A DNA stretch of 64,000 nucleotides from a virus (IMGVR_UViG_3300023174_003694:981-64980); one strand, 5' to 3'; shown: positions 388 through 43,822, numbered from the stretch's first letter. Notes: a model not told the origin generated them from the sequence alone. Program-made: numbers and translations.

Positions 388-1782
388 ATGAAAAGAGTTT
401 TATTTATAATTAACAAAATGAACTTCCGTCCCTCTTCAGGGCACGGAATTTTCATGAAAGGAGCTATAGACACATTTCTAGAGAATGGTCACTTTATAGA
501 TGTCTTATCTGACGGGGAACCTGATGATAACTTCTTAAAGGACTATCCTATTAATTTTATATTTCCAGACAAACAAGACAGATTAGCATATTCAAAACAT
601 TCTAATTTGTTTCAATTTGCAGATAGCTTTAATTTTGAAAAAGCAATTAACTTTCGATCTGCAATTACCAAAGCATTGGCAACTAATGTATATGATTTAA
701 TAATTTGTAATGATACAGAATCAGCTTTTGTATGTTATCAAATGGAACTTTATAAACATATACACGTAACTTCATATGCTCATGAATGTGCTTCTATCAA
801 CCCTGAATTAGGAGCTGGCGTATTCAAAGACTGCTATTATAATTTAATAGAGCAAATGATGTACTTTCCAATTACAACATTAATTCAGACTGAACAAAAT
901 AAAGAAAAGATACTTCCTTTACTTCCATTTCCAAATCCTAATCTTTATGTACAGCTTTATCCATTAACAGATGCGAACGCTGTAAATATCAAAGAGAGAG
1001 ACGGGTTACTTTATATAGGACGTCATGAAGACCGTAAGAATCCGGCCGCTTATATCAAGTGTCTGGCAGACATAAAAGAGAAGTTTGGCATTGAATTGAA
1101 GGCTAATGTAATGACGCGTCAAGCACACGTTAAAAAGTTTGAAGCTGACTTTGCTTCTATAGGTCATACCAATTATGAAATTGTAGCTGATGTAGTAGGT
1201 GAAGAAAAAGCTCAAATAATTCAAAAGTCAAAAGTAGCATTTATGCCATATAAAAATGAATCATTTGGAATAGCAGTGTTAGAAGCATTAAGATATATGC
1301 CTACCATTGTGTTAGACAAATTTGATTGGCATTACAACTTCAAAGGATTTTCAAATTTCATTGTAGCTGATTCTAAAAATGTAGCAGAGACTGTATTTGC
1401 TTCTTATAATGCAAAGCCTATTGAGGAAGATGTAATTTTAAAAGAGTTTGCAGATTATCAAAACTCTTATGAACAATCTTTGTTAGGTTTGCTAGATGGC
1501 CCAATAATGGGTAAAGGTAAAGAGCCACGAAATAGATTATACACTTATCTACAAGAGAATAAAGGAACTTGGGTAGATCTCGCTAAATATTTTCAAACAG
1601 AAAATTCCAAAGGAGTGATGTATCTAACTTCAGATATTGAAACCATTTATGTAAATTTAGGTTGGTATCAAATTAAACAAACAAATCACGAAACATATTT
1701 AGGAATTCCAGACGACAATGGAAATTTAGAACATAAAGAAATTGAAAATCCTTCAGATGCTTTATCTAGTTTTTTTCAATAG
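388..1782 (+). CDS. GT-B fold glycosyltransferase (GT4-like)
   Basis: C-terminal E-x7-E-like motif (NESFGIAVLEALRYMPTIV) typical of GT4 retaining glycosyltransferases; 464 aa. Confidence 0.6.
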   Translation: MKRVLFIINKMNFRPSSGHGIFMKGAIDTFLENGHFIDVLSDGEPDDNFLKDYPINFIFPDKQDRLAYSKHSNLFQFADSFNFEKAINFRSAITKALATNVYDLIICNDTESAFVCYQMELYKHIHVTSYAHECASINPELGAGVFKDCYYNLIEQMMYFPITTLIQTEQNKEKILPLLPFPNPNLYVQLYPLTDANAVNIKERDGLLYIGRHEDRKNPAAYIKCLADIKEKFGIELKANVMTRQAHVKKFEADFASIGHTNYEIVADVVGEEKAQIIQKSKVAFMPYKNESFGIAVLEALRYMPTIVLDKFDWHYNFKGFSNFIVADSKNVAETVFASYNAKPIEEDVILKEFADYQNSYEQSLLGLLDGPIMGKGKEPRNRLYTYLQENKGTWVDLAKYFQTENSKGVMYLTSDIETIYVNLGWYQIKQTNHETYLGIPDDNGNLEHKEIENPSDALSSFFQ

Positions 1783-1812: not shown

Positions 1813-2829
1813 ATGAGTAAAATTATTTATCTTCCTTTAGAAGAATTACCACAAAGGTATACAGGTATGATGAATGCAGCTATCTATCCAAAAGTAGATA
1901 TCTCTTTATATCCTAAAATTGAAATTGATACTGAAATTAAAAGAGGTCAATTTCTAGACATTGTCAATACATGTAAATTCAAAGCAGCCCAACTTCAAAT
2001 GATTGCAGATTTATTTAATGAAGGCAAAGTAGAAAATGGAGATGCATTTTTAATCGGAGATATATTCTTCCCAGGAATTGAAATGATTAAATATATGTCC
2101 GAACTTCAAGGTATGGATGTAAAAGTGTATGGAATTAATTATGCAGGTAGAGCTGATAAGACAGACTTTGTACAGCAATTATCATATTGGGCAGATGCTT
2201 CAGAAGCAGGATATCACTTTATCTGTGATGGAATTTTTGTAGGCAGTGATGACCATAAAGAAAATGTATGTAAACATTTTAATTTGAACCCAGCAACTGT
2301 GTACACGACAGGATTGGTATGGGACTTGGAATACATGAAGCAATTTCCAAACGACGGAGATAAAGAAGATTTTGTTATTTGGCCACATAGATTTTCCAAA
2401 GAAAAAGGAATTGCTGAATTAATTGAGTTTGCAAAATTCACAGACAAGAAAATTATTATCACTTCTTCAGGCCCAGCAAAAGATTTAGGTAAACTTCCTA
2501 AAAATATTGAGTATAGACATTCATTAACGAAAGCAGAGTACTTTGATTTAATGAGAAGAGCAAAATGGTACTTGTCGACAGCATATCAAGAAACGTTTGG
2601 TTACACTATTCAAGAAGCAATTTATTTCGGTTGTGAAATTTTAGTTCCAAATAGAGCATGTTGCCCTGAAATGGTTCCGGCTAAAAATGTTTATAATTCA
2701 GTAGATGAAATTGAAACGAAATTTAATGAGGGCGGCTTAGTAGTTCCAATGTCTTGGACAGAAAAATGGGATAACAATGCACAAACGATGATTGACATCA
2801 TAAAAGAAGATCAAACTAAAAATAACTAA
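1813..2829 (+). CDS. GT-B fold glycosyltransferase (GT4-like)
   Basis: QETFGYTIQEAIYFGCEILVPN matches the GT4 EX7E nucleotide-sugar binding motif. ATATTAAATAAAA motif lies upstream. Confidence 0.6.
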   Translation: MSKIIYLPLEELPQRYTGMMNAAIYPKVDISLYPKIEIDTEIKRGQFLDIVNTCKFKAAQLQMIADLFNEGKVENGDAFLIGDIFFPGIEMIKYMSELQGMDVKVYGINYAGRADKTDFVQQLSYWADASEAGYHFICDGIFVGSDDHKENVCKHFNLNPATVYTTGLVWDLEYMKQFPNDGDKEDFVIWPHRFSKEKGIAELIEFAKFTDKKIIITSSGPAKDLGKLPKNIEYRHSLTKAEYFDLMRRAKWYLSTAYQETFGYTIQEAIYFGCEILVPNRACCPEMVPAKNVYNSVDEIETKFNEGGLVVPMSWTEKWDNNAQTMIDIIKEDQTKNN

Positions 2830-2873: not shown

Positions 2874-3035
2874 ATGGGACGCAAAAAGAAATATAATACA
2901 CCTGAAGAATTAGCTGAAGCTAGAAAACAGTATGCTAAAAATTTCTATGAACGAAACAAGGAAAGATTAAATAACGCTTCAATGAAAAAGTATTATGAAA
3001 AAAGGAATAATTTACAAGACAACGAATCTAATTAA
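2874..3035 (+). CDS. small basic ORF (53 aa) overlapping the start of the GIY-YIG gene in another frame
   Basis: ATG at 2874 preceded by the ATATTTATATTAG motif. Lys/Arg-rich peptide (MGRKKKYNTPEELAEARKQYAKNFYERNKERL). Overlaps 2995..3570 by 41 nt in a different frame. Confidence 0.25.
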   Translation: MGRKKKYNTPEELAEARKQYAKNFYERNKERLNNASMKKYYEKRNNLQDNESN

Positions 3036-3570
3036 TGGTAAATTTTATGTAGGAAAAGATCAAAATAATAACGATCGATACCTAGGATCTGGATTACTAT
3101 TAAAAAAAGCTATTAAAAAATATGGTAGAGAAAATTTTCTTAAAGAAATTTTAGAAGAATGTCTGATAGAAGTGTTAGATATTAAAGAAATGTATTGGAT
3201 TGACAAATTAAATGCAGTATCAAACGGCTATAATTTAGCAGAAGGTGGCAAAGGTGGTAATACACGTAAAGGATATTCAGAAGAACAAATGATAGAATGG
3301 AAGGATAAAAAGTCAAAAGCACAAATGGGAAAGATTGGTCACGCTTCCGGCCCTAGACCAACACAATCAGAAAGCTTAAAAAAGGCACATGAGGCTGGTA
3401 AATATAATTATAAACATTTGTGCAGACCGATGAGTGAATCTAATAAAGCAGCTTTGTTAAAAGGAAGACAAGAAGCAAAGCATGATGTTATATGTGATCA
3501 TTGTGGACGTAGTATACCGCATACACATATTAAAGTTCATATGAAAAGTTCCAAATGTAAAAAAATTTAA
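2995..3570 (+). CDS. GIY-YIG homing endonuclease (free-standing, Seg/I-TevI-like)
   Basis: N-terminal GIIYKTTNLINGKFYVGKD is the GIY...YVG motif. NGYNLAEGG further downstream matches the I-TevI catalytic domain pattern. Confidence 0.85.
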   Translation: MKKGIIYKTTNLINGKFYVGKDQNNNDRYLGSGLLLKKAIKKYGRENFLKEILEECLIEVLDIKEMYWIDKLNAVSNGYNLAEGGKGGNTRKGYSEEQMIEWKDKKSKAQMGKIGHASGPRPTQSESLKKAHEAGKYNYKHLCRPMSESNKAALLKGRQEAKHDVICDHCGRSIPHTHIKVHMKSSKCKKI

Positions 3571-3586
3571 ACGTATTAAATAAGTT

Positions 3587-6160
3587 ATGGCATATCAAAA
3601 TATAGCATATCAAAAGAATAAGAATTTAATTCACGTATGGGATGACAAAAAAGGTCATATGCAATTTCCATTCAAGAAGTATGCTTATAAAAAGTCTGCT
3701 CATGGAAAGTTTGTAGCACTTGATGGCTCTAAATTAGAAAAGGTAACTAAATGGGACGACTCTGATTTACAAAGAGGTCAAATTTATGAATCTGACATCA
3801 ACCCAGAAACAAGAACGCTAATTGATTTATATTTCGAAACGGATGATCCTTCCACAGGTCACAGAGAGATGTTTATCGATATTGAAGTCTCGACAGAAGG
3901 TGGATTTTCTTCAGCAGAAGAAGCTTGGCAACCAATGACTTCAATCGCATTTCATGATAGAACTGCAAAGCAATCTGTAGCAATTATTGTAGACAAAGAC
4001 AGGACTTTGAAACCATATACAGATAAAGATTTGATTTTAGAAGTAGTTCAGACAGAATACGAACTTATATCTAAATTTCTTACTTATTATATGGAAATCA
4101 ATCCAACTATTATAACAGGATGGAACATTGATTATTTTGATATTCCATATTTGTATAATAGAATTTCACAAGTAGCTGGAAAGGAATATGCAAATACTTT
4201 ATCTCCTATTAATGAAGTAATTTATCTTCCTCATAGAAATAGATATAGAATAATGGGAGTGTCTTGTTTAGATTACATGGCATTGTATAAACTATTTACT
4301 TACTCGGAAGAGTCTTCATATTCTCTAGACAATATTTGTAAAAAGGAATTAGGTAAAGGTAAGATTGAATATGAAGGAAACCTAGATCATTTATATAAAA
4401 CAGATCCTGAAAAGTTTGTAGAGTATAACGTAAATGACGTTACTTTAGTTTTAGAGTTAGATGAGAAGCTTAAGTTTTTATCTTTGGCCCGAGGTATCTG
4501 TCACAAAGGTCACGTGCCTTATGAAGATGTTTATTTCACTACAAGATATCTAGATGGAGCCTGCGTGACTTATATGAAGCGATTAGGAATAGTTGCTCCA
4601 GATAGAAAGCTAAAAGACCATTCAAAGGTTACTGAAGATGAGGATGGTACTGAAAATGACTTTGCAGGAGCTTATGTGAAAGATCCAATTCCAGGTGTGT
4701 ATGAATGGGTATTTGACGAAGATATGGCGTCTCTATATCCTTCTATTATTAGAACTTTAAACATATCTCCAGAGACTAAAGTAGGTAGAATTGAAAATTG
4801 GGATTCAGTAAAAGAGTCTTTTTGGAATAACACAAATGACACTACAAGTGCAAAAATTAAAGCAGGTGCAAGACATTCGCTAATTCCAATAAATGAATTT
4901 AGAGATTATTTAGTTGAGAATAAATTTACAGTATCTTCAATTGGAGTAGTGTATGATTATTCTAGAAATGGATTGATTCCTTCTATTCTTGAAACTTGGA
5001 TGAATGAAAGAGAAGAGTATAGAGCTCTTGCTAAAAAATATGGTAAAGAAGGAGACGCTGAAATGTCTAAATTCTTTGACTCTAGACAGCATACAATGAA
5101 AATTGTAAATAACTCTTTGTATGGTGCATTAGGAGCTCCCGGTTTTAGATTCCATGATTTGGATAACGCAGAGTCTATTACACTAACGGGACAGCAGGTT
5201 ATCAAGCACGCGATGTTCAAAGGTAATGAATGGTTTACTAAACAAACTGGAGTTGATAAAGAGTATGTAATTTATGTGGATACGGATTCAAATTACTTCT
5301 CTGCTAAACCTATAATTGATTTAATGGAATCGAAAATGGGTAAAGAATTAACTAAACAAGAAAAGATTGATGTAACTTATAAAACTTCTCAGGTAGTTGA
5401 AAAGTATATTAATGAGTCTTGGGATGCATTTTGTTTAAATATCTTAAACTCTAATAAACACTTCTTATCTATTAAACAAGAATATGTAGCAGAGTCCGGA
5501 TTATGGATTGCCAAGAAACGTTATGCACAAAAAATTATATCAGAGAAAGGAGTTCTAATCTCTGAAATGACTAATGGAGCTAAAGAATGGAAACTAGATG
5601 TAAAAGGAATGGATGTTGTAAGATCGAATTTCCCAAAAGCATTTAGAGAATTTATGTCTGGTATTTTAATTGACATCTTAAATATATCTCCTCAAAAGAA
5701 AATTGATGATAAGGTGTTAGCATTTCGAGAAGAAATGAAGCAAAAGCCTATGTTTGATATCATGTTCCCGACAGGAGTAAAGGAATTGAAAAAATACAAG
5801 ACTAAAAAAGCCAAAGGTCAAATGTTTGGAGATAGAGTTAAAGGAACTCCAATACACGCAAAGTCAGCTTTGAATTATAATGATTTAATGACTTACTATA
5901 AAATTACTTTATCACAGCCAATTATAGATGGCGAAAAGATTAAGTGGACTTATTTGAAAAATAATCCTTTTGGATTAGATACTTGTGCTGTAAAAGGATT
6001 TGATGATCCAGAAGAAATACTTAAATTTATAACTCAGTATATAGACTATGATAGAATATTCACTGCGTCTTTAGAAAATAAGCTTCAAGGATTTTACGAT
6101 GCTTTGAGTTATGGTAGAATTCCTAAAAATGATAATATGGCTGATTTTTTCAGCTTCTAA
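3587..6160 (+). CDS. family B DNA polymerase with 3'-5' proofreading exonuclease
   Basis: Exo I FIDIEV. Pol motif A DEDMASLYPSII. Motif B KIVNNSLYGALG. Motif C VIYVDTDSNYF. 857 aa. Confidence 0.95.
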   Translation: MAYQNIAYQKNKNLIHVWDDKKGHMQFPFKKYAYKKSAHGKFVALDGSKLEKVTKWDDSDLQRGQIYESDINPETRTLIDLYFETDDPSTGHREMFIDIEVSTEGGFSSAEEAWQPMTSIAFHDRTAKQSVAIIVDKDRTLKPYTDKDLILEVVQTEYELISKFLTYYMEINPTIITGWNIDYFDIPYLYNRISQVAGKEYANTLSPINEVIYLPHRNRYRIMGVSCLDYMALYKLFTYSEESSYSLDNICKKELGKGKIEYEGNLDHLYKTDPEKFVEYNVNDVTLVLELDEKLKFLSLARGICHKGHVPYEDVYFTTRYLDGACVTYMKRLGIVAPDRKLKDHSKVTEDEDGTENDFAGAYVKDPIPGVYEWVFDEDMASLYPSIIRTLNISPETKVGRIENWDSVKESFWNNTNDTTSAKIKAGARHSLIPINEFRDYLVENKFTVSSIGVVYDYSRNGLIPSILETWMNEREEYRALAKKYGKEGDAEMSKFFDSRQHTMKIVNNSLYGALGAPGFRFHDLDNAESITLTGQQVIKHAMFKGNEWFTKQTGVDKEYVIYVDTDSNYFSAKPIIDLMESKMGKELTKQEKIDVTYKTSQVVEKYINESWDAFCLNILNSNKHFLSIKQEYVAESGLWIAKKRYAQKIISEKGVLISEMTNGAKEWKLDVKGMDVVRSNFPKAFREFMSGILIDILNISPQKKIDDKVLAFREEMKQKPMFDIMFPTGVKELKKYKTKKAKGQMFGDRVKGTPIHAKSALNYNDLMTYYKITLSQPIIDGEKIKWTYLKNNPFGLDTCAVKGFDDPEEILKFITQYIDYDRIFTASLENKLQGFYDALSYGRIPKNDNMADFFSF

Positions 6161-6169: not shown

Positions 6170-6526
6170 ATGAAAACAACGACAGCTGTAATAGTAAAAT
6201 TGTCTATAGACGCTTGCCACAATTTCCCTGCTGCTAAAGAATTATTTCCAGAGGTAGCTTTTTTATCTGATAGACATAGACATATGTTTCACTTTAAAGT
6301 ATGTAAAAAAGTATATCATGATGATAGAGATGTAGAATTTATAATGTTTAAGAGAGATATATTAGCATATCTTTCAGATAAGTATTATGACGCGACAACT
6401 CGAACTCATGAATTTGGTTCAATGTCCTGTGAAATGTTAGGAAGAGAACTTTTCAATCAATTTGATTGTAAATGGGTTGAAGTTTGGGAAGATGAAGAGA
6501 ATGGTGCTATAGTAGAAGGTTTATGA
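6170..6526 (+). CDS. queD: QueD-like 6-carboxy-5,6,7,8-tetrahydropterin synthase (PTPS family)
   Basis: 118 aa. IDACHNFP...RHRHMFHF aligns with the E. coli QueD FEAAHRLP...GRLHGHSF zinc/catalytic motifs. C-terminal similarity is weaker but present. Confidence 0.6.
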   Translation: MKTTTAVIVKLSIDACHNFPAAKELFPEVAFLSDRHRHMFHFKVCKKVYHDDRDVEFIMFKRDILAYLSDKYYDATTRTHEFGSMSCEMLGRELFNQFDCKWVEVWEDEENGAIVEGL

Positions 6527-7527
6527 TAACCATTTATGTGATATCAGATAATTTAGTAACTGAGCCTAATTCGTGGGAGACTCATTTAGCCTCTATACTT
6601 CAAGGATATATAGAAGCTAATAAATTAGACACTTATACGATTAAGGATATATCCAGTTTATCTGATATTAAAGAGTTATTTAAAACTAAAGCTATTCAAA
6701 CTGATGACAAATTTATATTTCCTAATGCATGGGGCTCTTCAGCAACTTACATTAAACATTGGTCAGAGTATTATAATATACCAGTTGAGACAATTGGAAT
6801 GTGGTCAAGAGGATGTTTTATTAATGATGACAAAGAATTTAGACCGATAGGAAATAGAGATTGGAGAAAGGTATTTGAAAGAGCATCTTTTAGATGTTTA
6901 GATAAATCATTTTTTATTTCAGAGTATTTCAAAGAGCAGTTTAGAATTTATGTATCTAAGTTTGTATTTCCCGATAGGTTAGGAGTAATTGCATTTCCAT
7001 TAGATTATTTAGAATTGGAAATGGCTTTGTACAAAAATAAACATTATAAGCAGGACATGATAATCTTTCCGTGGAATTCATATACTCCACTTCAAGAACA
7101 AATTATGTACGACTTTGTAAGAGTGTTTAAGAATATGCAAATTATATTTGCTCAAGAAAAAAGTCCTTTGGAAAGACATCAGCTTTTGACTCAAATTCAA
7201 AAATCAAAAGTTGCATTTTTACCATATGACTATCCTAATATAGGAGCTGAAATTTATGAATGTCTATTGTTAGGCACTATACCGCTAGTTCCGGATTTAG
7301 AAGGATTAAGAGATTTTGTTCCAATGGAGTTTAGATATCCTCCAGAATGGACAGAAACAATTTTTAATTATAGTAAATACGCGCCTGATTTGACTTCAAA
7401 GATTAAAGATTTGACAGACAATTATACAATGTATGTACCATTAATTAATAACCAGTTAGAACATTTATTTGAAACACATTACGACTCAGAAAAAATAATT
7501 GAGCAAATATTTGGAAATTCCAATTGA
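6523..7527 (+). CDS. GT-B-like glycosyltransferase (putative), between queD-like and TGT-like genes
   Basis: C-terminal QKSKVAFLPYDYPNIGAEIYECLLLGTIPLV parallels the QKSKVAFMPY...FGIAVLEAL block of ORF 388..1782. No QueC or QueE motifs. Confidence 0.35.
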   Translation: MITIYVISDNLVTEPNSWETHLASILQGYIEANKLDTYTIKDISSLSDIKELFKTKAIQTDDKFIFPNAWGSSATYIKHWSEYYNIPVETIGMWSRGCFINDDKEFRPIGNRDWRKVFERASFRCLDKSFFISEYFKEQFRIYVSKFVFPDRLGVIAFPLDYLELEMALYKNKHYKQDMIIFPWNSYTPLQEQIMYDFVRVFKNMQIIFAQEKSPLERHQLLTQIQKSKVAFLPYDYPNIGAEIYECLLLGTIPLVPDLEGLRDFVPMEFRYPPEWTETIFNYSKYAPDLTSKIKDLTDNYTMYVPLINNQLEHLFETHYDSEKIIEQIFGNSN

Positions 7528-7545
7528 AAATTATATATTTAGAAT

Positions 7546-8799
7546 ATGAAAGAAAAAAAGTTAGTTTATTTCCCGTCTCTATCGAGTGGAGCTTATGCAT
7601 CGCCTTTGACTAAAGACGCAGAGGTAGCTCCAGGAGTTCCATATAGATTTTGGGATGATAGAGTGCCTGAAGAGTGGCGTTATAAGTATTTCCTTATGAC
7701 AGCAGGTCACTTATACAAAAAAGAAGATATCCGACAAAAGTGGGGCTTGCAAGATACTTTAGTATTTGGAGACTCTGGTGGATTCCAAATTGCAACAGGA
7801 GCCTTGAAATGGGACATGGCATTGCGTGATCAAATATTTGAATGGTTAGAAGCTAATTCAGATATTGCATGTAATATTGATATCCCACCTCGTGTTACTT
7901 ATGAAGGAAGATTCCAAGAGTGTTTGGATATGAGTTTAGATAACTTCAAGTACTTTGAAAAGAAACAATCTGGTAAGACTAATTTCTTAAATGTAGTGCA
8001 AGGTTCGAATCCGCAAGAATTTAGACATTGGTACAATACAGTTAAAGGATTGGAATTTGGAGGTTGGTGTATTGGATCGTCTAGAAGATTAGTAGACTTC
8101 ATGTACATTTTATCTTTGATGATTAAAGAGAAAGAGTTTTTGAAAGAAAATAATACTTGGATTCACTTATTAGGTATTTCGAAAGTATCTGACTTTTTCG
8201 TGTTAGCTTATTTACAAAAGTTGATGAATCAGTATACAGATAACAGAATTACTATTTCGACAGATTCTTCTTCTCCAGGTCAATATCCTATCTTTGGACA
8301 AATGGTTTGGAGTCCGAATTGGAAAGATCAAGTATTTAATATGTTGTATTTTCCAAAAGATGGTTCTAATATGGGGTATCCTGATCATGGACATCTTCCT
8401 TCTTTAGTTAATCATCCAGGTGTTCCTTATTTCACTTATGATATTGCTAAAAATTGGTCGACAGAAGCAGTAACTCGAGCTACATATCACAATTTGCATA
8501 TGTATATCTATACTGTAGACAATGTTGAAAAATTAATTGAGACTTGTCCTTTAGAGGCTATGGTTGATATTATTCCAAATGACTTAATTCAAGTATTGCG
8601 ATCTATGGAAGAAATGTTCAATTCTCCAGATCCAATTGCAGTATATGAAAGATATAGACAATTTTATGTTAAGTATGGCGGAGAGAATGTAATGAATATT
8701 GCAAAAGAAGTTGCAACTGAATTCTTCGACTATACAGCATTTGATTCAGTAGATATGAAAAAACTTAAAAAAGAACAAAAACTATTAAAAACAAAGTAA
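7546..8799 (+). CDS. dpdA: tRNA-guanine transglycosylase family protein, DpdA-like (7-deazaguanine DNA transglycosylase candidate)
   Basis: LVFGDSGGFQI matches the TGT catalytic DSGGFQ block. NVVQGS and IHLLGIS match further TGT blocks. Sits in the replication module next to the queD-like gene. No CxCxxC zinc motif seen. Confidence 0.65.
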   Translation: MKEKKLVYFPSLSSGAYASPLTKDAEVAPGVPYRFWDDRVPEEWRYKYFLMTAGHLYKKEDIRQKWGLQDTLVFGDSGGFQIATGALKWDMALRDQIFEWLEANSDIACNIDIPPRVTYEGRFQECLDMSLDNFKYFEKKQSGKTNFLNVVQGSNPQEFRHWYNTVKGLEFGGWCIGSSRRLVDFMYILSLMIKEKEFLKENNTWIHLLGISKVSDFFVLAYLQKLMNQYTDNRITISTDSSSPGQYPIFGQMVWSPNWKDQVFNMLYFPKDGSNMGYPDHGHLPSLVNHPGVPYFTYDIAKNWSTEAVTRATYHNLHMYIYTVDNVEKLIETCPLEAMVDIIPNDLIQVLRSMEEMFNSPDPIAVYERYRQFYVKYGGENVMNIAKEVATEFFDYTAFDSVDMKKLKKEQKLLKTK

Positions 8800-8803
8800 T
8801 TAA

Positions 8804-10420
<1,617 letters not shown>

Positions 10421-10455: not shown

Positions 10456-11169
10456 ATGGAAAAAAGTAAGTTTATTGGTTTTATTAACCGTTACTTCTTG
10501 GCAGGTAATACAGATAGTGCCAAATTAGTCGTGAAAGACAAAAAATTAAGTACTAACTTTATTAGTGCAGACCAAAATGTAATTGGCGAGGTAGTTTTAA
10601 ATAACTTTGAAGCTTCTGATGCTGACTTAGGTGTTTATGCCACTTCTCAATTAGTAAAAATGTTGAGTGCAGTAGATGAGAAAATGGATATTACCTTTGG
10701 GGAAGTAGACAAAAAGATTTACTCTATGAATTTTAAAGATTCTAGCACAAATGTAACTTATATGTTAGCTGACTTATCAGTTATTAGACAAGTTCCTAAT
10801 TTAAAGTCATTGCCTGACTTTGATGTAAAGATTGAGTTGAATAAAGACTTCGCGAATAACTTTAAAAAGGCAGCGAATGCTTTACCAGAATCAGATAATT
10901 TTGGTGTAGAGTCCAATGGTGAAGAAACTAAAATTATTATCAACCACTCAAGTGTGAACACAAATAGAATTGTATTCTCGACAGACACTGTAGAGACTGC
11001 TTCAATGGACACAGTTTGTTTTTCAGCAAAATTGTTTAAGGAAATCTTAAATGCGAATGCTGATGCGACTGGGTTGTTAGAAGTGTCATCTAAAGGATTA
11101 GCAAGAGTAACTTTTACAAATGCTGATTATTCATCAACTTATTTCTTAGTTAAATTAACGATATCATAA
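10456..11169 (+). CDS. putative sliding clamp (T4 gp45-like)
   Basis: 237 aa, T4 gp45-like size. Directly precedes the clamp loader, as in the T4 45-44-62 gene order. Acidic protein. No strong motif, so the call is positional. Confidence 0.45.
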   Translation: MEKSKFIGFINRYFLAGNTDSAKLVVKDKKLSTNFISADQNVIGEVVLNNFEASDADLGVYATSQLVKMLSAVDEKMDITFGEVDKKIYSMNFKDSSTNVTYMLADLSVIRQVPNLKSLPDFDVKIELNKDFANNFKKAANALPESDNFGVESNGEETKIIINHSSVNTNRIVFSTDTVETASMDTVCFSAKLFKEILNANADATGLLEVSSKGLARVTFTNADYSSTYFLVKLTIS

Positions 11170-12098
11170 TGTTTGGAAATTCGGAACATACCCTTTGGGT
11201 AGAAAAATATAGACCAGAGCAGTTAGACGGTTACGTAGGTAATCAAGCAATTGTAGAAAAGGTAAGGATATATCTTGAAAGTGGAGATGTTCCGCATTTA
11301 CTCCTTTATGGAACTGCAGGAACAGGTAAAACTACTCTTGCAAAATTAATTGCTAAAAATATAGATTGTGATTTGATGTATATCAATGCATCAGATGAAA
11401 ACAATGTAGATACTGTTAGAGAAAAGATTAAAAGCTTTGCTAGCACAATAGGCTTTCGTCAATGGAAATTAGTAATCCTTGACGAAGCCGACTACTTGAC
11501 TCCGAATGCACAAGCAGCTCTTCGAAATTTGATGGAAACGTTTTCGAAAACGACTCGATTTATTTTAACATGTAACTATGTTGAAAAAGTAATTGACCCA
11601 ATTCAATCACGTTGTCAAGTATTTGGTATTACTCCTCCTTCAAAGAAAGACGTTGCTATTCGTGTTAATGAGATTCTTCAAGCTGAAAAGGTTACGTTTA
11701 AGCCAGAAGACCTGGTTTCTATTATTAATGCAGGGTATCCTGATATCCGTAGGATACTTAATTCCTGCCAGCGTCAAGTAGTTAATGGCGAATTGAAAGT
11801 AGACAAGCAATCTTTAATTGCATCCAATTATATGGACAAGGTTATTGAATTGTTAGCCTCGAAGCCGGATAAAAAACAATTGTTTACTTCAATTCGTCAG
11901 TTGTTAGCAGATTCTCAAGTAAAAGACTATACAGCATTATACAGACATCTGTATGATAATTTAGATTCTTTTGCGACAGGTCACATCGCATCTATTATTC
12001 TTATCATTGCAGAAGCTCAATATCAAGATGCTTTTGCAGTTGATAAAGAAATTAATGTATGTGCTATGTTTGTAAAAATACTTAACGAAATTTACTAA
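11169..12098 (+). CDS. clamp loader ATPase subunit (RFC small subunit / T4 gp44-like AAA+)
   Basis: Walker A GTAGTGKTT, Walker B ILDEAD, SRC motif IQSRCQVF. 309 aa. Confidence 0.85.
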   Translation: MFGNSEHTLWVEKYRPEQLDGYVGNQAIVEKVRIYLESGDVPHLLLYGTAGTGKTTLAKLIAKNIDCDLMYINASDENNVDTVREKIKSFASTIGFRQWKLVILDEADYLTPNAQAALRNLMETFSKTTRFILTCNYVEKVIDPIQSRCQVFGITPPSKKDVAIRVNEILQAEKVTFKPEDLVSIINAGYPDIRRILNSCQRQVVNGELKVDKQSLIASNYMDKVIELLASKPDKKQLFTSIRQLLADSQVKDYTALYRHLYDNLDSFATGHIASIILIIAEAQYQDAFAVDKEINVCAMFVKILNEIY

Positions 12099-13119: not shown

Positions 13120-13588
13120 ACCAAAATCAACAGGAACCGGGGCAGCTTCTATCTTTGACCATATGTCAAACTTAACAGATAAGAAGAAGCCTTGGCATTC
13201 TATTAGCGAAGCTGATCAAAAGTCATTTACTCCATTTATTATTAATAGATGGTTGTCTATGAATATGGATTTTATCGAAGTAATTAATGAATTGCAAAGA
13301 TATACAATAGGTCAAATATCGCCGGCAGAAACCTATAAATTGTATTACGAGTTTCTTCCTAAACAAAGACAATTCAATAAGTACATTAAAGGTAAGAAGG
13401 CTGATAAATACAGCACAGAGTTAGTCGAATTACTGTCACAGCACTTCTGTGTGAGTGAAAAAGAAGCTACGGAATATATAGAGCTCTTGGAGTCTACTAA
13501 CGTTGGAGAGATTCGTTCCATAGTTAAATTGTATGGAAAGTCAGATAAAGAAATAGACAATTTATTAAAGCCGAAGGTTGCAAAATGA
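13112..13588 (+). CDS. hypothetical protein (start uncertain: GTG 13112 or ATG 13166)
   Basis: 158-aa ORF. No motif recognised. Confidence 0.3.
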   Translation: MSKPKSTGTGAASIFDHMSNLTDKKKPWHSISEADQKSFTPFIINRWLSMNMDFIEVINELQRYTIGQISPAETYKLYYEFLPKQRQFNKYIKGKKADKYSTELVELLSQHFCVSEKEATEYIELLESTNVGEIRSIVKLYGKSDKEIDNLLKPKVAK

Positions 13589-14244
13589 TAATATCAATTA
13601 CAGGTAAAATAGGTAGCGGTAAAGATACCGTTGCACAAATTATACAAGAATGTACTCCATACCACAAATGGGAAATTCAAAAGTGGGCAGGTAAACTTAA
13701 AACAATTGCAGAAATAGTTTCAGGTATACCAAAAGAAAAATTTGAAGATCAAGATTTTAAATATACTAATCTTCCTGAATGTTGGGACAGACAAGTTCAG
13801 TCTGGTAGATATAAAACTACTCAATCAATGACAGTGCGAGATCTTCTTCAATTGTTAGGCACTGAAGCAATGCGTAACGGATTACATGAGAATGTATGGG
13901 TGAATGCTTTGATGTCAGATTATAAATCTACTCATTATTTAGTAGGGGCATTAGAAACTGAATTATCGGAAGAATCTGCAGTATATCCAAATTGGATTAT
14001 TACTGACACTAGATTTCCAAATGAATTAAAAGCTGTTCAAGATCAAAAAGGAATCACTATTAAAGTGCATAGACCAGGCAGAAAGACAGATGGCAAACAA
14101 GCTCAACACGCTTCAGAGATTGCACTAGATCATGTAACAGATTGGGACTATGTAATTTCCAATGATGGAGATTTAAGTGACTTAAAAAACAAAGTATATG
14201 AAATTTTAGAAGCTGAAAAGTTGCTAATATTTGCTGGGTTATAA
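13585..14244 (+). CDS. deoxynucleoside monophosphate kinase (T4 gp1-like dNMP kinase)
   Basis: P-loop ISITGKIGSGKDT near the N-terminus, as in T4 gp1 (GVKRSGKDT). ~220 aa. Confidence 0.6.
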   Translation: MIISITGKIGSGKDTVAQIIQECTPYHKWEIQKWAGKLKTIAEIVSGIPKEKFEDQDFKYTNLPECWDRQVQSGRYKTTQSMTVRDLLQLLGTEAMRNGLHENVWVNALMSDYKSTHYLVGALETELSEESAVYPNWIITDTRFPNELKAVQDQKGITIKVHRPGRKTDGKQAQHASEIALDHVTDWDYVISNDGDLSDLKNKVYEILEAEKLLIFAGL

Positions 14245-14294: not shown

Positions 14295-15245
14295 ATGGGA
14301 GTAAGTGCATTAGGTCAATTGTTTAAAGCAGTTGTGCCAGAAAAGAAAGAAGGCGATAAAACGATATCGTATAGTCAGTTTGCAATGTGGAGTTCATGTC
14401 CACAGAAATGGAAATTGAATTATGTAGATAGAGTTCGATTAGGAGGTCCTTCAATACATATGGTATTTGGTACTGCCTTTCACGAGACTATACAATGGTA
14501 CTTACATATTATGTTCACTAAATCTATTAAGGAAGCAGATCGACTTAATTTATCAGAATGCTTACACGAGCAAATGATTCAAAATTATATGTTAGAAGTT
14601 TCCAATTTAGAAGGTGTGCATTTTTCAAATCCGCAAGAATTGCAAGAATTTTATTTAGATGGACTTGCAATTCTTGATTGGATTAAAAGACATAGAGGAG
14701 CTTACTTCTCTAATCAAACTCATGAATTGGTAGGAATTGAAATTCCACTTTACACTCAAGCGTCTGAAGATAATGAAAAAGTTATCATGAATGGGTTCTT
14801 GGATATTGTATTACGTGAAAAGGCAACTGGTAAGATACTTATTATTGACTTTAAAACGAGTACTAAAGGTTGGAATCAATATGCGAAAGCAGATAAAACC
14901 AAAGCTTCTCAATTGGTATTGTATAAGTCTTACTTTGCAAAACAATATGGGTATGATGAAGAGTCAATTGATATTAAGTATTTCATTGTAAAAAGAAAGC
15001 TTATTGAAGGGTTTATGTACCCACAAAAAAGAGTTCAAGAGTTTGTTCCAGCTTCAGGTAAGCCTACTAGAAATAAATTACAAAAAGAAATTGCAAATTT
15101 TGTAGCTACTAGTTTCAATGCAGACGGTTCTTATAATGACGCTGCAGTTCATCCTGCTATTGGATTAGCTGGATTAAAAAATTGTAGATGGTGTGAGTTT
15201 GCAAATAGAGAAGATTTATGTCCTAAAGATAAAAGAATAAAATGA
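14295..15245 (+). CDS. PD-(D/E)XK nuclease, Cas4/RecB-like with C-terminal Cys cluster
   Basis: LDIVLRE...ILIIDFKTS fits the D...(D/E)xK core. N-terminal Cys (WSSCPQKW) plus C-terminal CRWCEFANREDLC is the Cas4-type four-Cys Fe-S arrangement. Confidence 0.6.
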   Translation: MGVSALGQLFKAVVPEKKEGDKTISYSQFAMWSSCPQKWKLNYVDRVRLGGPSIHMVFGTAFHETIQWYLHIMFTKSIKEADRLNLSECLHEQMIQNYMLEVSNLEGVHFSNPQELQEFYLDGLAILDWIKRHRGAYFSNQTHELVGIEIPLYTQASEDNEKVIMNGFLDIVLREKATGKILIIDFKTSTKGWNQYAKADKTKASQLVLYKSYFAKQYGYDEESIDIKYFIVKRKLIEGFMYPQKRVQEFVPASGKPTRNKLQKEIANFVATSFNADGSYNDAAVHPAIGLAGLKNCRWCEFANREDLCPKDKRIK

Positions 15246-15703
15246 TAAACAAGTACAAAGTCATGAATTCATTAAGTTCAGACCCAGACAGAATCAAGAT
15301 TGCAATTATAGGGTCTAGAGAATACGAGAATAAAAGAAAAATAAGAGATATGATTTTCAAACTTAAACAAACGTTTGGAGATAAATTAGAAATTATATCA
15401 GGTGGTTGCCCTTCAGGAGCTGATAAGTATGCTAAAAAGTATTCTATCGAGCTAGGAGTTAATTATAGAGAATTCAATCCTGCGCATACTGTAAAGAATT
15501 TATATTCAGTGATGCCAGATTCATATTATAGTAAGCCTTTTCATACTACTCAATTCTTTCATAGAAATGAGTTGATTGCAAAGTATTGTGATAAAATGGT
15601 TGCCTTCATAGATTCTAATGTAGCATCTAAAGGTTCAAATCATGCCGTGACAATGGCACAAAAACATTCAAAGCCTGTTGTTATTGTAAATGAAAAATCT
15701 TAA
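15242..15703 (+). CDS. DprA/Smf-like Rossmann (SLOG superfamily, DUF2493-like) protein
   Basis: IAIIGSREY...ISGGCPSGADKYAKKYSIELG resembles the DprA/SLOG GxxxGxDxxA nucleotide-binding loop. Confidence 0.35.
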   Translation: MINKYKVMNSLSSDPDRIKIAIIGSREYENKRKIRDMIFKLKQTFGDKLEIISGGCPSGADKYAKKYSIELGVNYREFNPAHTVKNLYSVMPDSYYSKPFHTTQFFHRNELIAKYCDKMVAFIDSNVASKGSNHAVTMAQKHSKPVVIVNEKS

Positions 15704-17293: not shown

Positions 17294-17295
17294 TT

Positions 17296-18606: not shown

Positions 18607-19231
18607 TTACGCGATAACAGTATGTAATGAAATAGAAGAGATCAAGAAATTGGTCTCTTTTATGTTATCTACTAAAAGAAATCAAGATGAAATAGTAATT
18701 CAACAAGATGAATTAACTAACCCTTCAATGGATACAGTAGCAGTACAAAATTATATTAATGATTTAATATTTGAAGATAAAATTAAATTTGTGAGCTGTG
18801 CATTAAATAATGACTTCGCTGCATTTAAAAATAACTTAACTGACAATTGTAGTGGAGATTACATTTTTCAAATAGATGCTGATGAAATGCCTAGCGAAGA
18901 ATTAATTGCTAACATTCCTTATATTTTAGAAGTAAATAGAGATGTAGATGTATTTCTTGTACCAAGAATCAATACGGTAGAAGGACTTACTCACGACCAT
19001 ATCCGACAATGGAGATGGAATGTAAACGAGAAAGGCTGGGTGAACTTTCCAGACTATCAATGGAGAATCTATAGAAATGCTCCTAGCATAAAATGGAAGA
19101 ATAAAGTTCATGAAGTAATTCAAGGGCATAAAACCTCCACGCTACTTCCAGCAGAAGAATCATATTGTCTGTATCATCCAAAAACAATTGATAGACAAGA
19201 AAAACAAAACAACTATTATGACACACTCTAG
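18563..19231 (+). CDS. glycosyltransferase family 2 (start overlaps upstream gene; ATG 18563 or TTG ~18590)
   Basis: ISYAITVCNEIEEI is the GT2 N-terminal block. QIDADEMP is a DxD motif. Confidence 0.55.
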   Translation: MNYLNLKKLSQLKISYAITVCNEIEEIKKLVSFMLSTKRNQDEIVIQQDELTNPSMDTVAVQNYINDLIFEDKIKFVSCALNNDFAAFKNNLTDNCSGDYIFQIDADEMPSEELIANIPYILEVNRDVDVFLVPRINTVEGLTHDHIRQWRWNVNEKGWVNFPDYQWRIYRNAPSIKWKNKVHEVIQGHKTSTLLPAEESYCLYHPKTIDRQEKQNNYYDTL

Positions 19232-20620: not shown

Positions 20621-20626
20621 AAACAA

Positions 20627-29167: not shown

Positions 29168-29481
29168 TATACTGTTTTGATTTAGATAATACTTTATGCA
29201 CTACCCTAGGCAATGATTATGAAAAATCAGAGCCAATATCTAATATGATTGTAAAGGTAAATGAATTATATGATGCTGGTCATACAATATTAATTTATAC
29301 AGCTCGTGGAATGTCTACTTATAAAGGTGATGTGGATGCTGTGTATGATGCATTTTATTTATTTACTAAAAACCAAATTAAATCTTGGGGTATTAAGCAT
29401 CATAAATTACAATTAGGTAAGCCTTCATATGATGTATTCATAGATGATAAGAATATGTTAATTAATGATTTTTTAGGTTAA
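29164..29481 (+). CDS. HAD-superfamily phosphatase (GmhB-like, short)
   Basis: MIYCFDLDNTLC is HAD motif I (DxDxT). IYTARG is motif II-like. FIDDK gives motif IV Asp. 105 aa. Confidence 0.5.
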   Translation: MIYCFDLDNTLCTTLGNDYEKSEPISNMIVKVNELYDAGHTILIYTARGMSTYKGDVDAVYDAFYLFTKNQIKSWGIKHHKLQLGKPSYDVFIDDKNMLINDFLG

Positions 29482-43821: not shown

Positions 43822-43822
43822 A

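Follow-up and report, generated by a model that had tools for sequence, protein, structure and literature searches.

A QueC-less, DpdL-type locus in a phage replication module: the probable DNA-insertion end of a 7-deazaguanine pathway with an associated GT4-like glycosyltransferase family

Three genes in the replication module

The window, a 64,000-nucleotide stretch of viral DNA (IMGVR_UViG_3300023174_003694:981-64980), carries three open reading frames between its DNA polymerase and clamp genes. All are on the plus strand, at positions 6170-6526, 6523-7527 and 7546-8799, as given in the original prediction. ORF1 (118 amino acids) begins 9 nt past the stop codon of a family-B DNA polymerase (PolB). 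Its end shares an ATGA overlap with ORF2 (334 amino acids), and this overlap of the ORF1 stop codon suggests translational coupling. ORF3 (417 amino acids) starts 18 nt after ORF2. PolB (3587-6160, plus strand) is T4 gp43-like, with Pfam DNA_pol_B and exonuclease domains and a match to phrog_262 (E 1.5e-178); it is co-oriented with the module and packed against ORF1. The clamp (10456-11169) and the clamp loader (11169-12098) lie downstream, as had been claimed, and a previously unmentioned phage GroEL gene (8807-10420), which starts 7 nt past ORF3, separates ORF3 from the clamp. A consensus scan found no terminator-like site on the plus strand from PolB to GroEL. Beyond that, the promoter and terminator scans are at chance level (62 against 57 ± 7 expected) and uninformative.

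Homologues of ORF1, ORF2 and ORF3 form 477, 72 and 663 clusters, respectively, all of them conserved, so all three are genuine rather than chance reading frames. A megablast search of segment 6170-8799 against 50,697 phage records gave no match, and PADLOC matched none of the three proteins, the search with ORF3 extending up to E 1. Upstream of PolB, a GIY-YIG homing endonuclease (2995-3570, plus strand; phrog_314, E 6e-32, weak Pfam GIY-YIG) sits next to a glycosyltransferase gene described below and is outside the pathway. A T4-like dNMP kinase is encoded at 13585-14244, and a tRNA scan of the window found zero tRNA genes. The window also contains a large glycan-synthesis island at 15.9-32.8 kb, and some of its glycosyltransferases therefore clearly serve other purposes. 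The host is probably a marine Bacteroidota, judged only from the similarity to phage phiST.

DpdL and the genes for 7-carboxy-7-deazaguanine

ORF1 had been described as a QueD-like PTPS, which is correct for its T-fold kinship but not for its identity as a QueD. The protein has the signature L32-x3-H36-R37-H38-x-F40 (L32-SDR-H36-R37-H38-M-F40, at about nt 6263-6289) and the segment S86-C87-E88 (nt 6425-6433). This matches the published signature of DpdL, a QueD-like T-fold protein with LxxxHRHxF instead of CxxxHGH (PMC10516641). The LxxxHRHxF columns are conserved in phiST, in Acidovorax phage ACP17, in 10 metagenomic homologues and in 72 further loci. The sequence identity of ORF1 is 37% to phiST DpdL (gp040) and 36-37% to ACP17 DpdL, and only 21% to the QueD of the window phage itself. 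In tblastn searches, ORF1 found phiST with E 2e-15 and ACP17 with E 2e-10, over more than 90% of the protein, and it matches phrog_17812 with E 5e-25. Kinship with QueD/PTPS is visible at the profile level only (hhalign against phage QueDs, probability 78.6%, E 1.7e-5); there is no Pfam PTPS or NCBIfam match, and phmmer against PDB sequences returned only chance matches, such as haemoglobin at E 0.056. By its motif and its homology to the phiST and ACP17 proteins, ORF1 (6170-6526, plus strand) is DpdL, a T-fold paralogue of QueD and a proposed CDG decarboxylase.

The FolE, QueD, QueE and QueC genes are absent from the window by tblastn and phmmer, and the original prediction was that the pathway may be completed elsewhere in the genome or by the host. 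FolE and QueE do lie elsewhere in the genome: together with a true QueD, they are encoded 0.1-2.8 kb before position 1 of the window, on the same contig, which is public. QueC was not found within the approximately 80 kb inspected. The upstream QueD has 160 amino acids, scores 56 bits with PF01242 and has the motif CxxxHGY. QueE is a radical SAM protein whose best NCBIfam matches are all QueE models, while FolE scores 172 bits with PF01227. QueD, QueE and FolE are 57%, 75% and 52% identical to the phiST proteins, respectively. No QueC was found from -9.6 kb to +69.7 kb of this genome, which is at least 124 kb long, and no QueF or ArcS was seen in the same approximately 80 kb. Furthermore, QueC occurs in 0 of 171 DpdL or glycosyltransferase loci, in flanking sequence that reaches up to 8-10 kb unless the contig ends sooner. 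The phage has the gene set expected of DpdL carriers, with FolE, QueD, QueE and the DpdA-like ORF3 present and QueC absent in the inspected region.

The identity of ORF1 as DpdL, together with the absence of QueC, points to the branch that leads from CDG to 7-deazaguanine (2'-deoxy-7-deazaguanine, dDG, in the DNA, as in phiST) and away from preQ0, preQ1 or G+, the products originally proposed. Those products would be expected if ORF1 acted as a CPH4 synthase, as a working QueD does, and if the remaining enzymes, QueC among them, came from elsewhere in the genome or from the host. ORF1 does belong to the same T-fold superfamily, and of the genome, which is at least 124 kb long, about 80 kb was inspected for queC. 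However, Leu replaces the catalytic Cys of CxxxHGH, neither PF01242 nor TIGR03367 matches ORF1, a separate bona fide QueD exists, and QueC, QueF and ArcS are missing in the sets given above. We consider this explanation highly improbable.

One of the closest known systems is that of phiST, whose DNA is fully dDG-substituted (PMC10516641). The phiST system consists of FolE, QueD, QueE, DpdL and DpdA3 (PMC10516641), and the QueC-less gene set is common to both phages. Both DpdL proteins have the same LxxxHRHxF motif and conserved residues, identity between the CDG-synthesis genes is 52-75%, and the phiST module likewise adjoins the replicative polymerase. The two differ in that phiST has a short DpdA3 (259 amino acids), a P-loop ATPase and MazG, and no glycosyltransferase, whereas the window phage uses a 417-residue TGT-like enzyme of the PA5oct type and two to three GT-B genes. 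The decarboxylation of CDG to 7-deazaguanine by DpdL is a published prediction (PMC10516641). When dpdL and dpdA of phiST, or those of ACP17, were placed in E. coli, no dDG was formed, and the authors suspected a missing enzyme (PMC10516641). No residues separate the DpdL proteins of modules with a glycosyltransferase from those of modules with DpdA3, the conserved residues being identical in both, so there is no sign of a different DpdL chemistry between the two architectures.

A DpdA-like transglycosylase

ORF3 (7546-8799, plus strand) is a DpdA-like transglycosylase of the TGT superfamily, as indicated by its fold model and catalytic motifs. The DSGGFQ block that had been noticed is at residues 76-81 (nt 7771-7788) and is invariant across 40 homologues. 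Further motifs are N110-I-D112 (nt 7873-7890), Q152-G153 (within 7993-8007) and T-D240-S-S-S-P (8260-8277). D76 of DSGGFQ and D240 of TDSSSP are invariant in the 40 sequences, and we take them, by motif position, to be equivalent to D102 and D280 of TGT. The structure model (pLDDT 88) has the TGT-type TIM-barrel fold of this superfamily, and DpdA is its top non-redundant structural match; phmmer against PDB sequences gave no match.

The assignment of ORF3 as DpdA-like rather than as a tRNA-specific TGT was upheld. Its scores are below the family cut-offs of PF01702 (17.7 against 26.3 bits), TIGR00432 (20 against 350) and TIGR00449 (17.9 against 47.6). The protein holds only four cysteines, which are neither conserved nor part of a CxC motif, and it therefore lacks the CxCxxC...H zinc site whose intact form would have pointed to a tRNA TGT; it also has no PUA domain. 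A tRNA TGT or ArcTGT was rejected on both the curated thresholds and the zinc site. ORF3 shares at most 15% identity with bacterial DpdA (the DNA preQ0 insertase, PDB 7ui4) and with tRNA TGTs; compared with both it has a different C-terminal helical domain, and, unlike bacterial DpdA, its likely substrate base is not preQ0.

Among the DpdA subfamilies, ORF3 is kin at the superfamily level and a member of neither DpdA2 nor DpdA3. The ACP17 DpdA2 found no match in the window by tblastn, and hhalign of ORF3 against DpdA2 aligned no more than about 190 columns (probability 92%, E 7e-7), which is consistent with a related yet distinct family. Against 21 DpdA3 sequences the hhalign probability is 33%, and against phiST gp042 alone 5.8%; DpdA3 proteins are about 260-285 amino acids long versus 417 in ORF3. 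The sole PHROG match is the unannotated family phrog_10773. Alignment thus separates the PA5oct/ORF3-type family from both of the described subfamilies compared, DpdA2 and DpdA3.

A relative of ORF3 in a cultured phage comes from the Pseudomonas jumbo phage PA5oct. In its locus EST35_0316-0318 (with QueE at EST35_0322), EST35_0316 belongs to the same TGT-like family (hhalign 100%, E 3e-44), and the trio of TGT-like, glycosyltransferase and DpdL genes comes after the polymerase, as in the window phage. PA5oct differs in having a TGT-like protein about 120 amino acids longer, a single canonical glycosyltransferase and a gammaproteobacterial host. PA5oct DNA withstands several restriction enzymes with G-containing sites (PMC12191111), which indicates a modified G. 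From this resistance and from the gene context, we infer that the substrate of ORF3 is DNA.

A TGT-like enzyme could instead act on tRNA, as TGT and ArcTGT do, or on a protein, as does the Cap10 enzyme of CBASS, which attaches deazaguanine to the CD-NTase. Such a target is very unlikely for ORF3. The protein has neither zinc site nor PUA domain and scores below the TGT cut-offs, the window has zero tRNA genes, and the gene lies in a replication operon, with PolB adjoining the module in 31 of 84 DpdL loci. Moreover, the homologous PA5oct module accompanies restriction-resistant DNA, and every phage deazaguanine system studied so far acts on DNA (PMC10516641). The upstream FolE, QueE and QueD, an ORF3 that is not a tRNA TGT, and its structural match to DpdA all support 7-deazaguanine DNA modification in the replication module, which was the central claim of the original prediction.

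A glycosyltransferase family linked to DpdL

The GT-B-like nature of ORF2 (6523-7527, plus strand) was borne out by its AlphaFold model (pLDDT 91), which is GT-B/GT4-like. Foldseek against the PDB returned BshA, PglA, MshA and SenB with probability 1.0 and TM 0.6-0.67, while Pfam, NCBIfam and PHROG gave no match. By hhalign, ORF2 matches the 342-residue ACP17 glycosyltransferase (98%) and a 338-residue paralogue in the window (84%); all 72 ORF2 homologue clusters are at least 42% identical. The paralogue (1813-2829, plus strand) reaches the Pfam Glycos_transf_1 cut-off exactly, with 26.4 bits. It is the best match in the window to the glycosyltransferase encoded between DpdA and DpdL in ACP17 (E 3e-27) and in PA5oct (E 2e-22). 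We define the DpdL-associated glycosyltransferase family here by ACP17 ASD50404, PA5oct EST35_0317 and window 1813-2829. Both ORF2 and the 338-residue protein belong to it by homology and by location, lying at most a few kb from DpdL and a long DpdA.

The two copies differ in how far they keep the residues of the family. The 1813-2829 protein retains essentially all of the approximately 25 family-invariant residues and has H-R-F-S-K-E-K-G (nt 2386-2409) and the EX7E motif (QETFGYTIQEA, nt 2587-2619); it passes both the GT4 nucleotide-sugar signature (R-x4-K-G, EX7E) and the Pfam threshold, which ORF2 fails. In ORF2, WNSYTPLQ (nt 7072-7095) stands in place of the canonical R/K nucleotide-diphosphate motif: R185 is N, K190 is L, and Y takes the position of the first EX7E Glu; the second Glu, E246 (within nt 7243-7263), is kept. 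Judged by these residues, ORF2 is a degenerate duplicate of the canonical glycosyltransferase and, having lost the family R/K diphosphate motif, may be inactive. It was rejected as the canonical active glycosyltransferase of the module for the loss of family-invariant residues, and as a DNA glucosyltransferase like T4 AGT or BGT since the structures that it matches best are GT4 enzymes acting on small molecules. An additional GT1/GT4-type glycosyltransferase of 464 amino acids (388-1782, plus strand; Pfam Glycos_transf_1, 32.9 bits) is directly upstream of the canonical copy. Its position between FolE and the canonical gene is the same in a related contig, and homologues occur in only 6 of the DpdL loci; it is a doubtful, clade-specific member of the module.

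The GT4-like family is present in 45 of 49 DpdL loci that have a long DpdA, the four exceptions being truncated contigs that end within about 0.6 kb of DpdL, and in 0 of 21 DpdL loci with DpdA3 (Fisher p = 3e-14, the counts being drawn from related contigs rather than independent events). When only loci flanked by 4 kb or more on each side are considered, the family occurs in 23 of 23 with long DpdA versus 0 of 9 with DpdA3. In the reverse direction, 80 loci seeded on the glycosyltransferase contain DpdL in 79, a long TGT-like gene in 72, a GalE-like epimerase in 38 and QueC in none. The seed was an alignment of 6 sequences, a 13-sequence alignment being too diverse, so this reverse test is biased towards PA5oct-like phages, which dominate the seeded set. 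The DpdL, glycosyltransferase and DpdA genes are all on the same strand, with a median gap of 275 nt between DpdL and the glycosyltransferase. In cultured phages, all strong matches to the family (17 of 17) are in DpdL-positive phages, at most 3 kb from DpdL. Besides PA5oct and ACP17, Xanthomonas phage BUDD is a cultured carrier of the module. There are two mutually exclusive DpdL architectures, one with DpdA3 (sometimes with a P-loop ATPase) and one with a long DpdA and a GT4-like glycosyltransferase. The link of this family to DpdL is new here, and the family goes unmentioned in the literature searched.

In ACP17 the module order is QueD, FolE, a 132-residue gene, DpdA2, the 342-residue glycosyltransferase, DpdL and QueE. 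As in the window phage, the DpdA, glycosyltransferase and DpdL trio is next to PolB and QueC is lacking, and the ACP17 glycosyltransferase is homologous to both window copies. The ACP17 transglycosylase is of the DpdA2 type, related to DpdA2 of Vibrio phages nt-1 and VH7D, while ORF3 is not; the subfamily assignments for ACP17 and PA5oct are inferred from similarity to these two proteins. ACP17 also differs in its gene order, in having a single glycosyltransferase instead of a canonical and a degenerate copy, and in a small gene, c6, that is absent from the window phage. The conserved 175-residue c6 neighbour gave no BLASTP alignment with the window SLOG-domain protein (15242-15703), and its HMM had no match in the window. 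ACP17 (DpdA2, glycosyltransferase and DpdL) and Stenotrophomonas phage Moby (QueC and DpdA2) differ by this exchange of genes at one and the same genomic position.

On the evidence of gene identities, folds and motifs, of the genes present for the pathway with QueC missing from the inspected region, and of the co-occurrence counts, segment 6170-8799 is probably the DNA-insertion end of a QueC-less, DpdL-type phage 7-deazaguanine pathway in which the GT4-like family is integral. In the pathway that we infer, FolE, QueD and QueE would convert GTP to 7-carboxy-7-deazaguanine (CDG), and DpdL would process CDG, by decarboxylation to 7-deazaguanine if the published proposal holds. ORF3 would then replace guanines of the phage DNA with the deazaguanine base, and the resulting genome would be protected from restriction and other DNA-targeting defences. 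The GT4-like family would be an integral third component whenever DpdL pairs with a long DpdA, of either the DpdA2 or the PA5oct/ORF3 type. Its most likely role would be to add a sugar to deazaguanine, as the free base or in DNA, or to supply the step missing when dpdL and dpdA failed in E. coli.

The tight two-way co-occurrence with DpdL makes a sugar-decorated deazaguanine, a possibility already raised from the position of ORF2, a serious hypothesis. It is possible, though less likely than not, that the family transfers a sugar onto 7-deazaguanine, either on the free base before insertion or in DNA. In a weaker form, the glycosyltransferase may be the missing enzyme that DpdL and DpdA2-type enzymes need to make dDG. 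The final base may be dDG or a sugar-bearing derivative. 7-Deazaguanine has no obvious C7 handle for O-glycosylation, and a sugar would therefore have to be attached at N2 or O6 or by C-glycosylation, unless the base is not DG. By analogy, HuiG of huimycin biosynthesis is a chemical precedent, a GT4-type enzyme to which glycosylation of a free 7-deazapurine base has been assigned (PMC7439116). Like the phage family, it is a GT-B enzyme beside FolE, QueD and QueE homologues, and it transfers GlcNAc to the base; it differs in that it serves an actinomycete secondary metabolite, acts on O-methylated preQ0 as a free base and has no link to DNA.

The product may instead be plain dDG as in phiST, with DpdL decarboxylating CDG and the DpdA-like enzyme inserting 7-deazaguanine; the GT-B proteins would touch neither base nor DNA, and their targets might be proteins or glycans, or ORF2 might be a relic without catalytic activity. 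We regard this as doubtful. It agrees with the 52-75% identity of the CDG genes to those of phiST, with the identical DpdL residues across module types, with the loss of the R/K motif in ORF2, with the unrelated glycan island and with the lack of an obvious handle on dDG. Furthermore, the closest relatives of ORF1 in IMG/VR (58-72% identity) belong to DpdA3-type modules free of glycosyltransferases. Against it, the glycosyltransferase is found almost only beside DpdL and is always present where the DpdA is long, in widely differing phages with varied gene orders; its block often also contains a GalE-like epimerase, and ACP17 dpdA and dpdL without the glycosyltransferase yielded no dDG.

Phage DNA glucosyltransferases are also GT-B enzymes, and the GT-B proteins could glycosylate hydroxymethylated C or U as in T-even phages, their proximity to DpdL being coincidental. 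Besides the shared fold, the T4-like dNMP kinase noted above would fit such a role. However, the precomputed Pfam lists for approximately 80 kb hold no match to a dCMP/dUMP hydroxymethylase or a thymidylate-synthase-family protein, the best-matching structures are GT4 enzymes for small molecules rather than T4 AGT/BGT, and the co-occurrence is specifically with DpdL, so that this explanation has very little probability.

Modifying DNA with 7-deazaguanines is a major means by which phages counter host defences. No more than eight derivatives are known (PMC10516641), and among these pathways least is understood about the DpdL branch, whose enzyme activity has never been reconstituted. For this window alone, the significance is modest: it adds another phage that very likely replaces G with a 7-deazaguanine. 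If sugar transfer is correct, the window phage, PA5oct and ACP17 would have a glycosylated form of 7-deazaguanine in their DNA, a purine equivalent of T4 glucosyl-hydroxymethylcytosine, of which there is no report from phage DNA in the literature searched. The architecture with the glycosyltransferase is common, being present in at least 588 IMG/VR contigs, and its cultured carriers include the therapeutic candidate PA5oct.

Gene organization and the identity of ORF1 and ORF3

The module consists of three adjoining genes, ORF1 (6170-6526, 118 amino acids), ORF2 (6523-7527, 334 amino acids) and ORF3 (7546-8799, 417 amino acids), which are tightly packed on the + strand, as the original prediction had placed them. 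An ATGA overlap joins ORF1 and ORF2, a coupling that hints at a complex of the gene products, and 18 nt separate ORF2 from ORF3. The gene of the family-B DNA polymerase (PolB; 3587-6160, + strand) ends 9 nt before the start of ORF1, and a phage GroEL gene (8807-10420, 537 amino acids, PF00118 at 277 bits) begins 7 nt past ORF3, followed by the sliding clamp (10456-11169) and the clamp loader (11169-12098). The predicted position between the polymerase and the clamp genes is correct, and GroEL also intervenes. Consensus scans of the block found no terminator-like sites on the + strand and promoter-like matches at chance level only. The G+C content is about 31% across the whole window, in which one strand bears nearly all genes. 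The closest cultured PolB, that of Microcystis phage Mel-JY01, has merely 41% identity, and a Megablast search of the segment against 50,697 phage records gave no match. Related contigs L013 and L019 likewise have a GroEL homologue (cluster c28) where GroEL stands here, right behind the DpdA-like gene. A GIY-YIG homing endonuclease (2995-3570; phrog_314, E 6e-32) is inserted between PolB and the canonical glycosyltransferase gene at 1813-2829 described below, and another GIY-YIG gene takes the clamp loader's place after the clamp in a related contig (L007, 6771-7406).

ORF1, initially described as QueD-like, is identified by its sequence as DpdL and not QueD. Pfam and NCBIfam searches returned no match, and its best PHROGs match is the unannotated family phrog_17812 (E 5e-25). 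By tblastn, ORF1 matched 29 phage records, including Cellulophaga phage phiST, Acidovorax phage ACP17 and the PA5oct group; the matched genes of phiST and ACP17 are those named DpdL by Hutinet et al. 2023 (PMC10516641). DpdL is a paralogue of QueD, with LxxxHRHxF where QueD has its signature CxxxHGH, and it has been proposed to decarboxylate 7-carboxy-7-deazaguanine (CDG) on the route to 2'-deoxy-7-deazaguanine (dDG) (PMC10516641). The corresponding motif of ORF1 is F-L32-S-D-R-H36-R37-H38-M-F40, which, together with H17, H50, R53, E56, S86-C87-E88 and E107-D108, is common to ORF1, phiST, ACP17, PA5oct and metagenomic homologues. ORF1 has 37% identity to the DpdL of phiST, against 21% to the QueD of the same phage. 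The earlier label holds at the level of the T-fold, since kinship to phage QueDs is detectable by profile comparison (78.6%, E 1.7e-5).

ORF3 scored below the cut-offs of both PF01702 (17.7 bits; cut-off 26.3) and TIGR00432 (20 bits; cut-off 350), and PADLOC and PDB-sequence searches returned nothing. Its AlphaFold model, made with 40 homologues as input, is confident (pLDDT 88), and Foldseek aligned it to Z. mobilis TGT and to ArcTGT with a probability of 1.0. The segments D76-S-G-G-F-Q, N110-x-D112, Q152-G153 and T-D240-S-S-S-P are invariant in its family, in agreement with the predicted TGT-family protein carrying a DSGGFQ block. The opposing reading, a tRNA TGT with an intact zinc site, was also checked. 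The zinc site is absent from ORF3, because none of its four cysteines is conserved in the family or lies in a CxCxxC motif. ORF3 aligned to the PA5oct-type proteins of 500-560 amino acids with an hhalign probability of 100% (E 3e-44, ~390 columns), to DpdA2 of the ACP17 type with 92% (E 7e-7, ~190 columns), and to DpdA3 of the phiST type with 33% (E 4.5e-4, 179 columns). It belongs neither to DpdA2 nor to DpdA3 by the membership tests applied. The ACP17 transglycosylase is akin to the DpdA2 proteins of nt-1 and VH7D, both of which have been experimentally tested. ORF3 is a DpdA-like enzyme with a TGT fold, member of a little-described PA5oct/ORF3-type family, and the label is kept at superfamily level, the direct comparison having covered PA5oct-type, DpdA2 and DpdA3 proteins.

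The CDG genes upstream of the window

The contig from which the window derives is public (ENA ERZ27247972 k141_76578, 120.7 kb; 3 mismatches in 11,782 overlapping bases) and extends upstream. It carries, on the window strand and numbered from the window start, a true QueD (-2807 to -2325, 160 amino acids, PF01242 at 56 bits, motif CxxxHGY), QueE (-2031 to -1252, 259 amino acids, a radical SAM protein whose top NCBIfam matches are all QueE models) and FolE (-722 to -87, 211 amino acids, PF01227 at 172 bits). The original prediction that the pathway may be completed outside the window stands for FolE and QueE, which lie just upstream. QueC, QueF and ArcS were found neither in the precomputed Pfam lists nor in our own searches, which spanned -9.6 kb to approximately +69.7 kb, so that QueC is missing from some 80 kb. 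As the upstream genes were found and QueC was not, the gene set comprises FolE, QueD, QueE, a DpdA-like enzyme and DpdL but not QueC, the combination by which the dDG branch is recognised in the literature; all G of phiST is replaced through this branch (PMC10516641). Vibrio phage VP1 is a second report of dDG. We consider it likely that the locus encodes a DpdL-branch deazaguanine DNA-modification module, and deazaguanine in the DNA of this phage is what a specialist would expect.

QueD, QueE and FolE have identities of 57%, 75% and 52% to their phiST counterparts, and this likeness suggests a marine Bacteroidota host. The phage has a GroES as well (111 amino acids, PF00166 (Cpn10) by precomputed Pfam match, window strand; 8554-8889 of the upstream locus L008), between QueE and FolE. 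Further upstream of QueD, the segment 993-6315 of L008 contains a class II ribonucleotide reductase, DUF5522, a dUTPase, a ferritin-like protein, and ORFs of 458 and 262 amino acids with no family match.

A glycosyltransferase family in DpdL modules

ORF2 was unmatched in every family library searched (Pfam, NCBIfam, PHROGs). The GT-B-like fold proposed for it is supported by its model (pLDDT 91), which resembles the GT4-type GT-B enzymes BshA, PglA, MshA and SenB (probability 1.0, TM 0.6-0.67). Glycosyltransferase (GT) genes of 342 and 353 amino acids lie between DpdA and DpdL in ACP17 and PA5oct, respectively, and each has two matches in the window. ORF2 is matched at E 1e-9 by the ACP17 protein and at E 1e-17 by that of PA5oct, while a 338-amino-acid ORF (1813-2829) is matched more strongly, at E 3e-27 and E 2e-22. 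An alignment of 47 members of this family has about 25 near-invariant residues. Practically all are retained by the 338-residue protein, among them H-R-x-x-x-E-K-G (nt 2386-2409), with which GT4 enzymes bind the diphosphate, and the EX7E motif (nt 2587-2619). In ORF2 many family residues are swapped (R185 to N, K190 to L, the first Glu of EX7E to Y), and E246 is the sole nucleotide-sugar signature residue left. Judged by these residues, ORF2 is a degenerate copy and not the canonical enzyme of the family. ORF2 probably still has some function, as it is conserved within its own clade (72 clusters, down to 42% identity).

Among cultured phages, all 17 strong tblastn matches to the 338-residue GT fall in DpdL-positive phages, with the GT at most 3 kb from DpdL. 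These phages include ACP17, Sinorhizobium phage Phosso, Burkholderia phage BCSR5, Xanthomonas phages X1 and BUDD, and eleven PA5oct-like phages. Next, with DpdL as the seed, 80 loci were retrieved from IMG/VR, where at least 579 contigs match, and their neighbours were classified by local HMMs and clustering. Where a long DpdA (DpdA2 or PA5oct/ORF3 type) lies beside DpdL, the GT was found in 45 of 49 loci, the other four being contigs that end less than ~0.6 kb from DpdL, whereas it was found in none of the 21 loci with DpdA3 (Fisher p = 3e-14, the loci being related sequences and not independent events). Among loci with 4 kb or more of sequence on each side, the GT occurs in 23/23 and 0/9, respectively. 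In the reverse test, 80 loci were seeded on the GT alone, from at least 588 matching contigs. DpdL was within 8 kb in 79 of them, a long TGT-like gene was present in 72, a conserved 175-residue gene, c6, in 67, and a GalE-like epimerase (PF01370) in 38; QueC or DpdA3 occurred in none of the 80. The gene orders TGT-GT-DpdL, TGT-c6-DpdL-GT and DpdL-GT-TGT were all seen, and this variation, though among related loci, favours functional linkage over inherited synteny. The GT family belongs to the DpdL/long-DpdA module.

In most modules of the PA5oct type, and in some of the DpdA2 type, c6 (~175 amino acids, no Pfam match) is encoded between DpdL and the long TGT-like gene. It was found in 28 of 84 DpdL loci (for example L045, 8897-9424, and L003, 4297-4695, which is ACP17 ASD50402), never with DpdA3, and is absent from the window; it is a candidate fourth component of the GT-type pathway. 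Another cluster, c40 (268-369 amino acids; L024, 8535-9341, and L026, L033, L035 and L044), adjoins DpdL or the GT in some DpdL loci that have no recognised DpdA. Weakly akin to DpdA3 (hhalign 61%, E 8e-5), it may represent yet another diverged form of DpdA. L033, L035 and L044 carry both the GT and c40, and would be exceptions to the GT occurring only with long DpdA if c40 is a transglycosylase.

Comparison with known systems and the predicted product

In about half of the DpdA3 loci, a P-loop ATPase of the kinase-like AAA_18 type adjoins DpdL instead of the GT. In some contigs the two are fused into single ORFs of 301-313 amino acids (L028, 3323-4264; L029, 9995-10933; L031, 9995-10900), which suggests that the ATPase is a functional partner of DpdL. 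The phiST version is gp041 (7308-7805 of locus L002), a gene said to have no homologues in other deazaguanine phages (Hutinet 2023, PMC10516641). The ATPase was never seen in GT-type modules among the DpdL loci classified. The conserved DpdL residues are the same in modules with DpdA3 and in those with the GT, so the chemistry of DpdL is probably alike in both, with the GT acting on top.

The module described here has DpdL and the CDG genes in common with the dDG system of phiST and would work in a like manner, but differs in its transglycosylase, which is neither DpdA2 nor DpdA3, and in the added GT. ACP17 and Stenotrophomonas phage Moby, both T4-like, have DpdA2 at the same genomic position, where Moby has QueC while ACP17 has c6, the GT and DpdL. 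An annotated inositol-3-phosphate synthase, an odd neighbour for this pathway, lies between FolE and QueC in Moby (L092, 2520-3770). PA5oct has a module homologous to that of this phage. Its DNA resisted cleavage at a number of restriction sites that contain G and is recognised by END nucleases, which depend on modification, and the study remarked on QueE and a PTPS-like gene only (PMC12191111).

Judging by published work on these families, CDG would be the product of FolE, QueD and QueE, DpdL would remove or otherwise process its carboxylate, and the DpdA-like enzyme would swap G in DNA for the DpdL product. The modification would block restriction, in keeping with the resistance of the DNA of PA5oct, which has the homologous module. 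Plain dDG as the product, made with no part for the GTs, appears rather unlikely. Only slightly better odds are given to the GT contributing to the modification, be it by yielding a sugar-bearing product or by a step needed to make the product; the two estimates overlap, because a sugar-bearing product alone excludes plain dDG. In the first option the GT would glycosylate the base, and HuiG, a GT4-type enzyme, has been assigned the glycosylation of a free 7-deazapurine in huimycin biosynthesis (PMC7439116). However, three points argue against a simple sugar adduct: C7 of 7-deazaguanine bears neither a hydroxyl nor an amine, the catalytic capacity of ORF2 seems impaired, and the phage has an unrelated glycan-synthesis island. 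In the second option the GT would be the component missing when dpdL and dpdA of ACP17 produced no dDG in E. coli (PMC10516641). The term 'glycosyl' appears nowhere in Hutinet 2023 (PMC10516641), and no link between a glycosyltransferase and DpdL was found in the searchable later literature. The plain deazaguanine part is of a familiar kind; the new, testable part is the GT linkage and the rule of two architectures, in which DpdL goes with DpdA3, or with a long DpdA and the GT.

The glycan-biosynthesis island spans 17 kb (15911-32775) inside the replication region of this T4-like phage. It has two GT1/GT4 genes, at least four GT2 genes, a GT11 fucosyltransferase-like gene, a DegT aminotransferase, a PglD-like acetyltransferase, a PhyH dioxygenase, two methyltransferases, a GHMP kinase, an NAD epimerase/dehydratase and a UDP-Glc/GDP-Man dehydrogenase. 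The island may act on the virion, the host surface or the DNA. Its epimerase (30700-31620) is a homologue (E 1e-38) of the GalE-like genes that other phages have in their DpdL-GT modules. Elsewhere, the window encodes a T4 gp1-like dNMP kinase (13585-14244), a SLOG/DprA-like protein (YAcAr; 15242-15703), an NT5C 5'-nucleotidase (35891-36460), an Hc1 histone-like protein (approximately 36540-36734), a Band_7 protein (41923-42750) and a double-PAS-domain protein (43781-44926).
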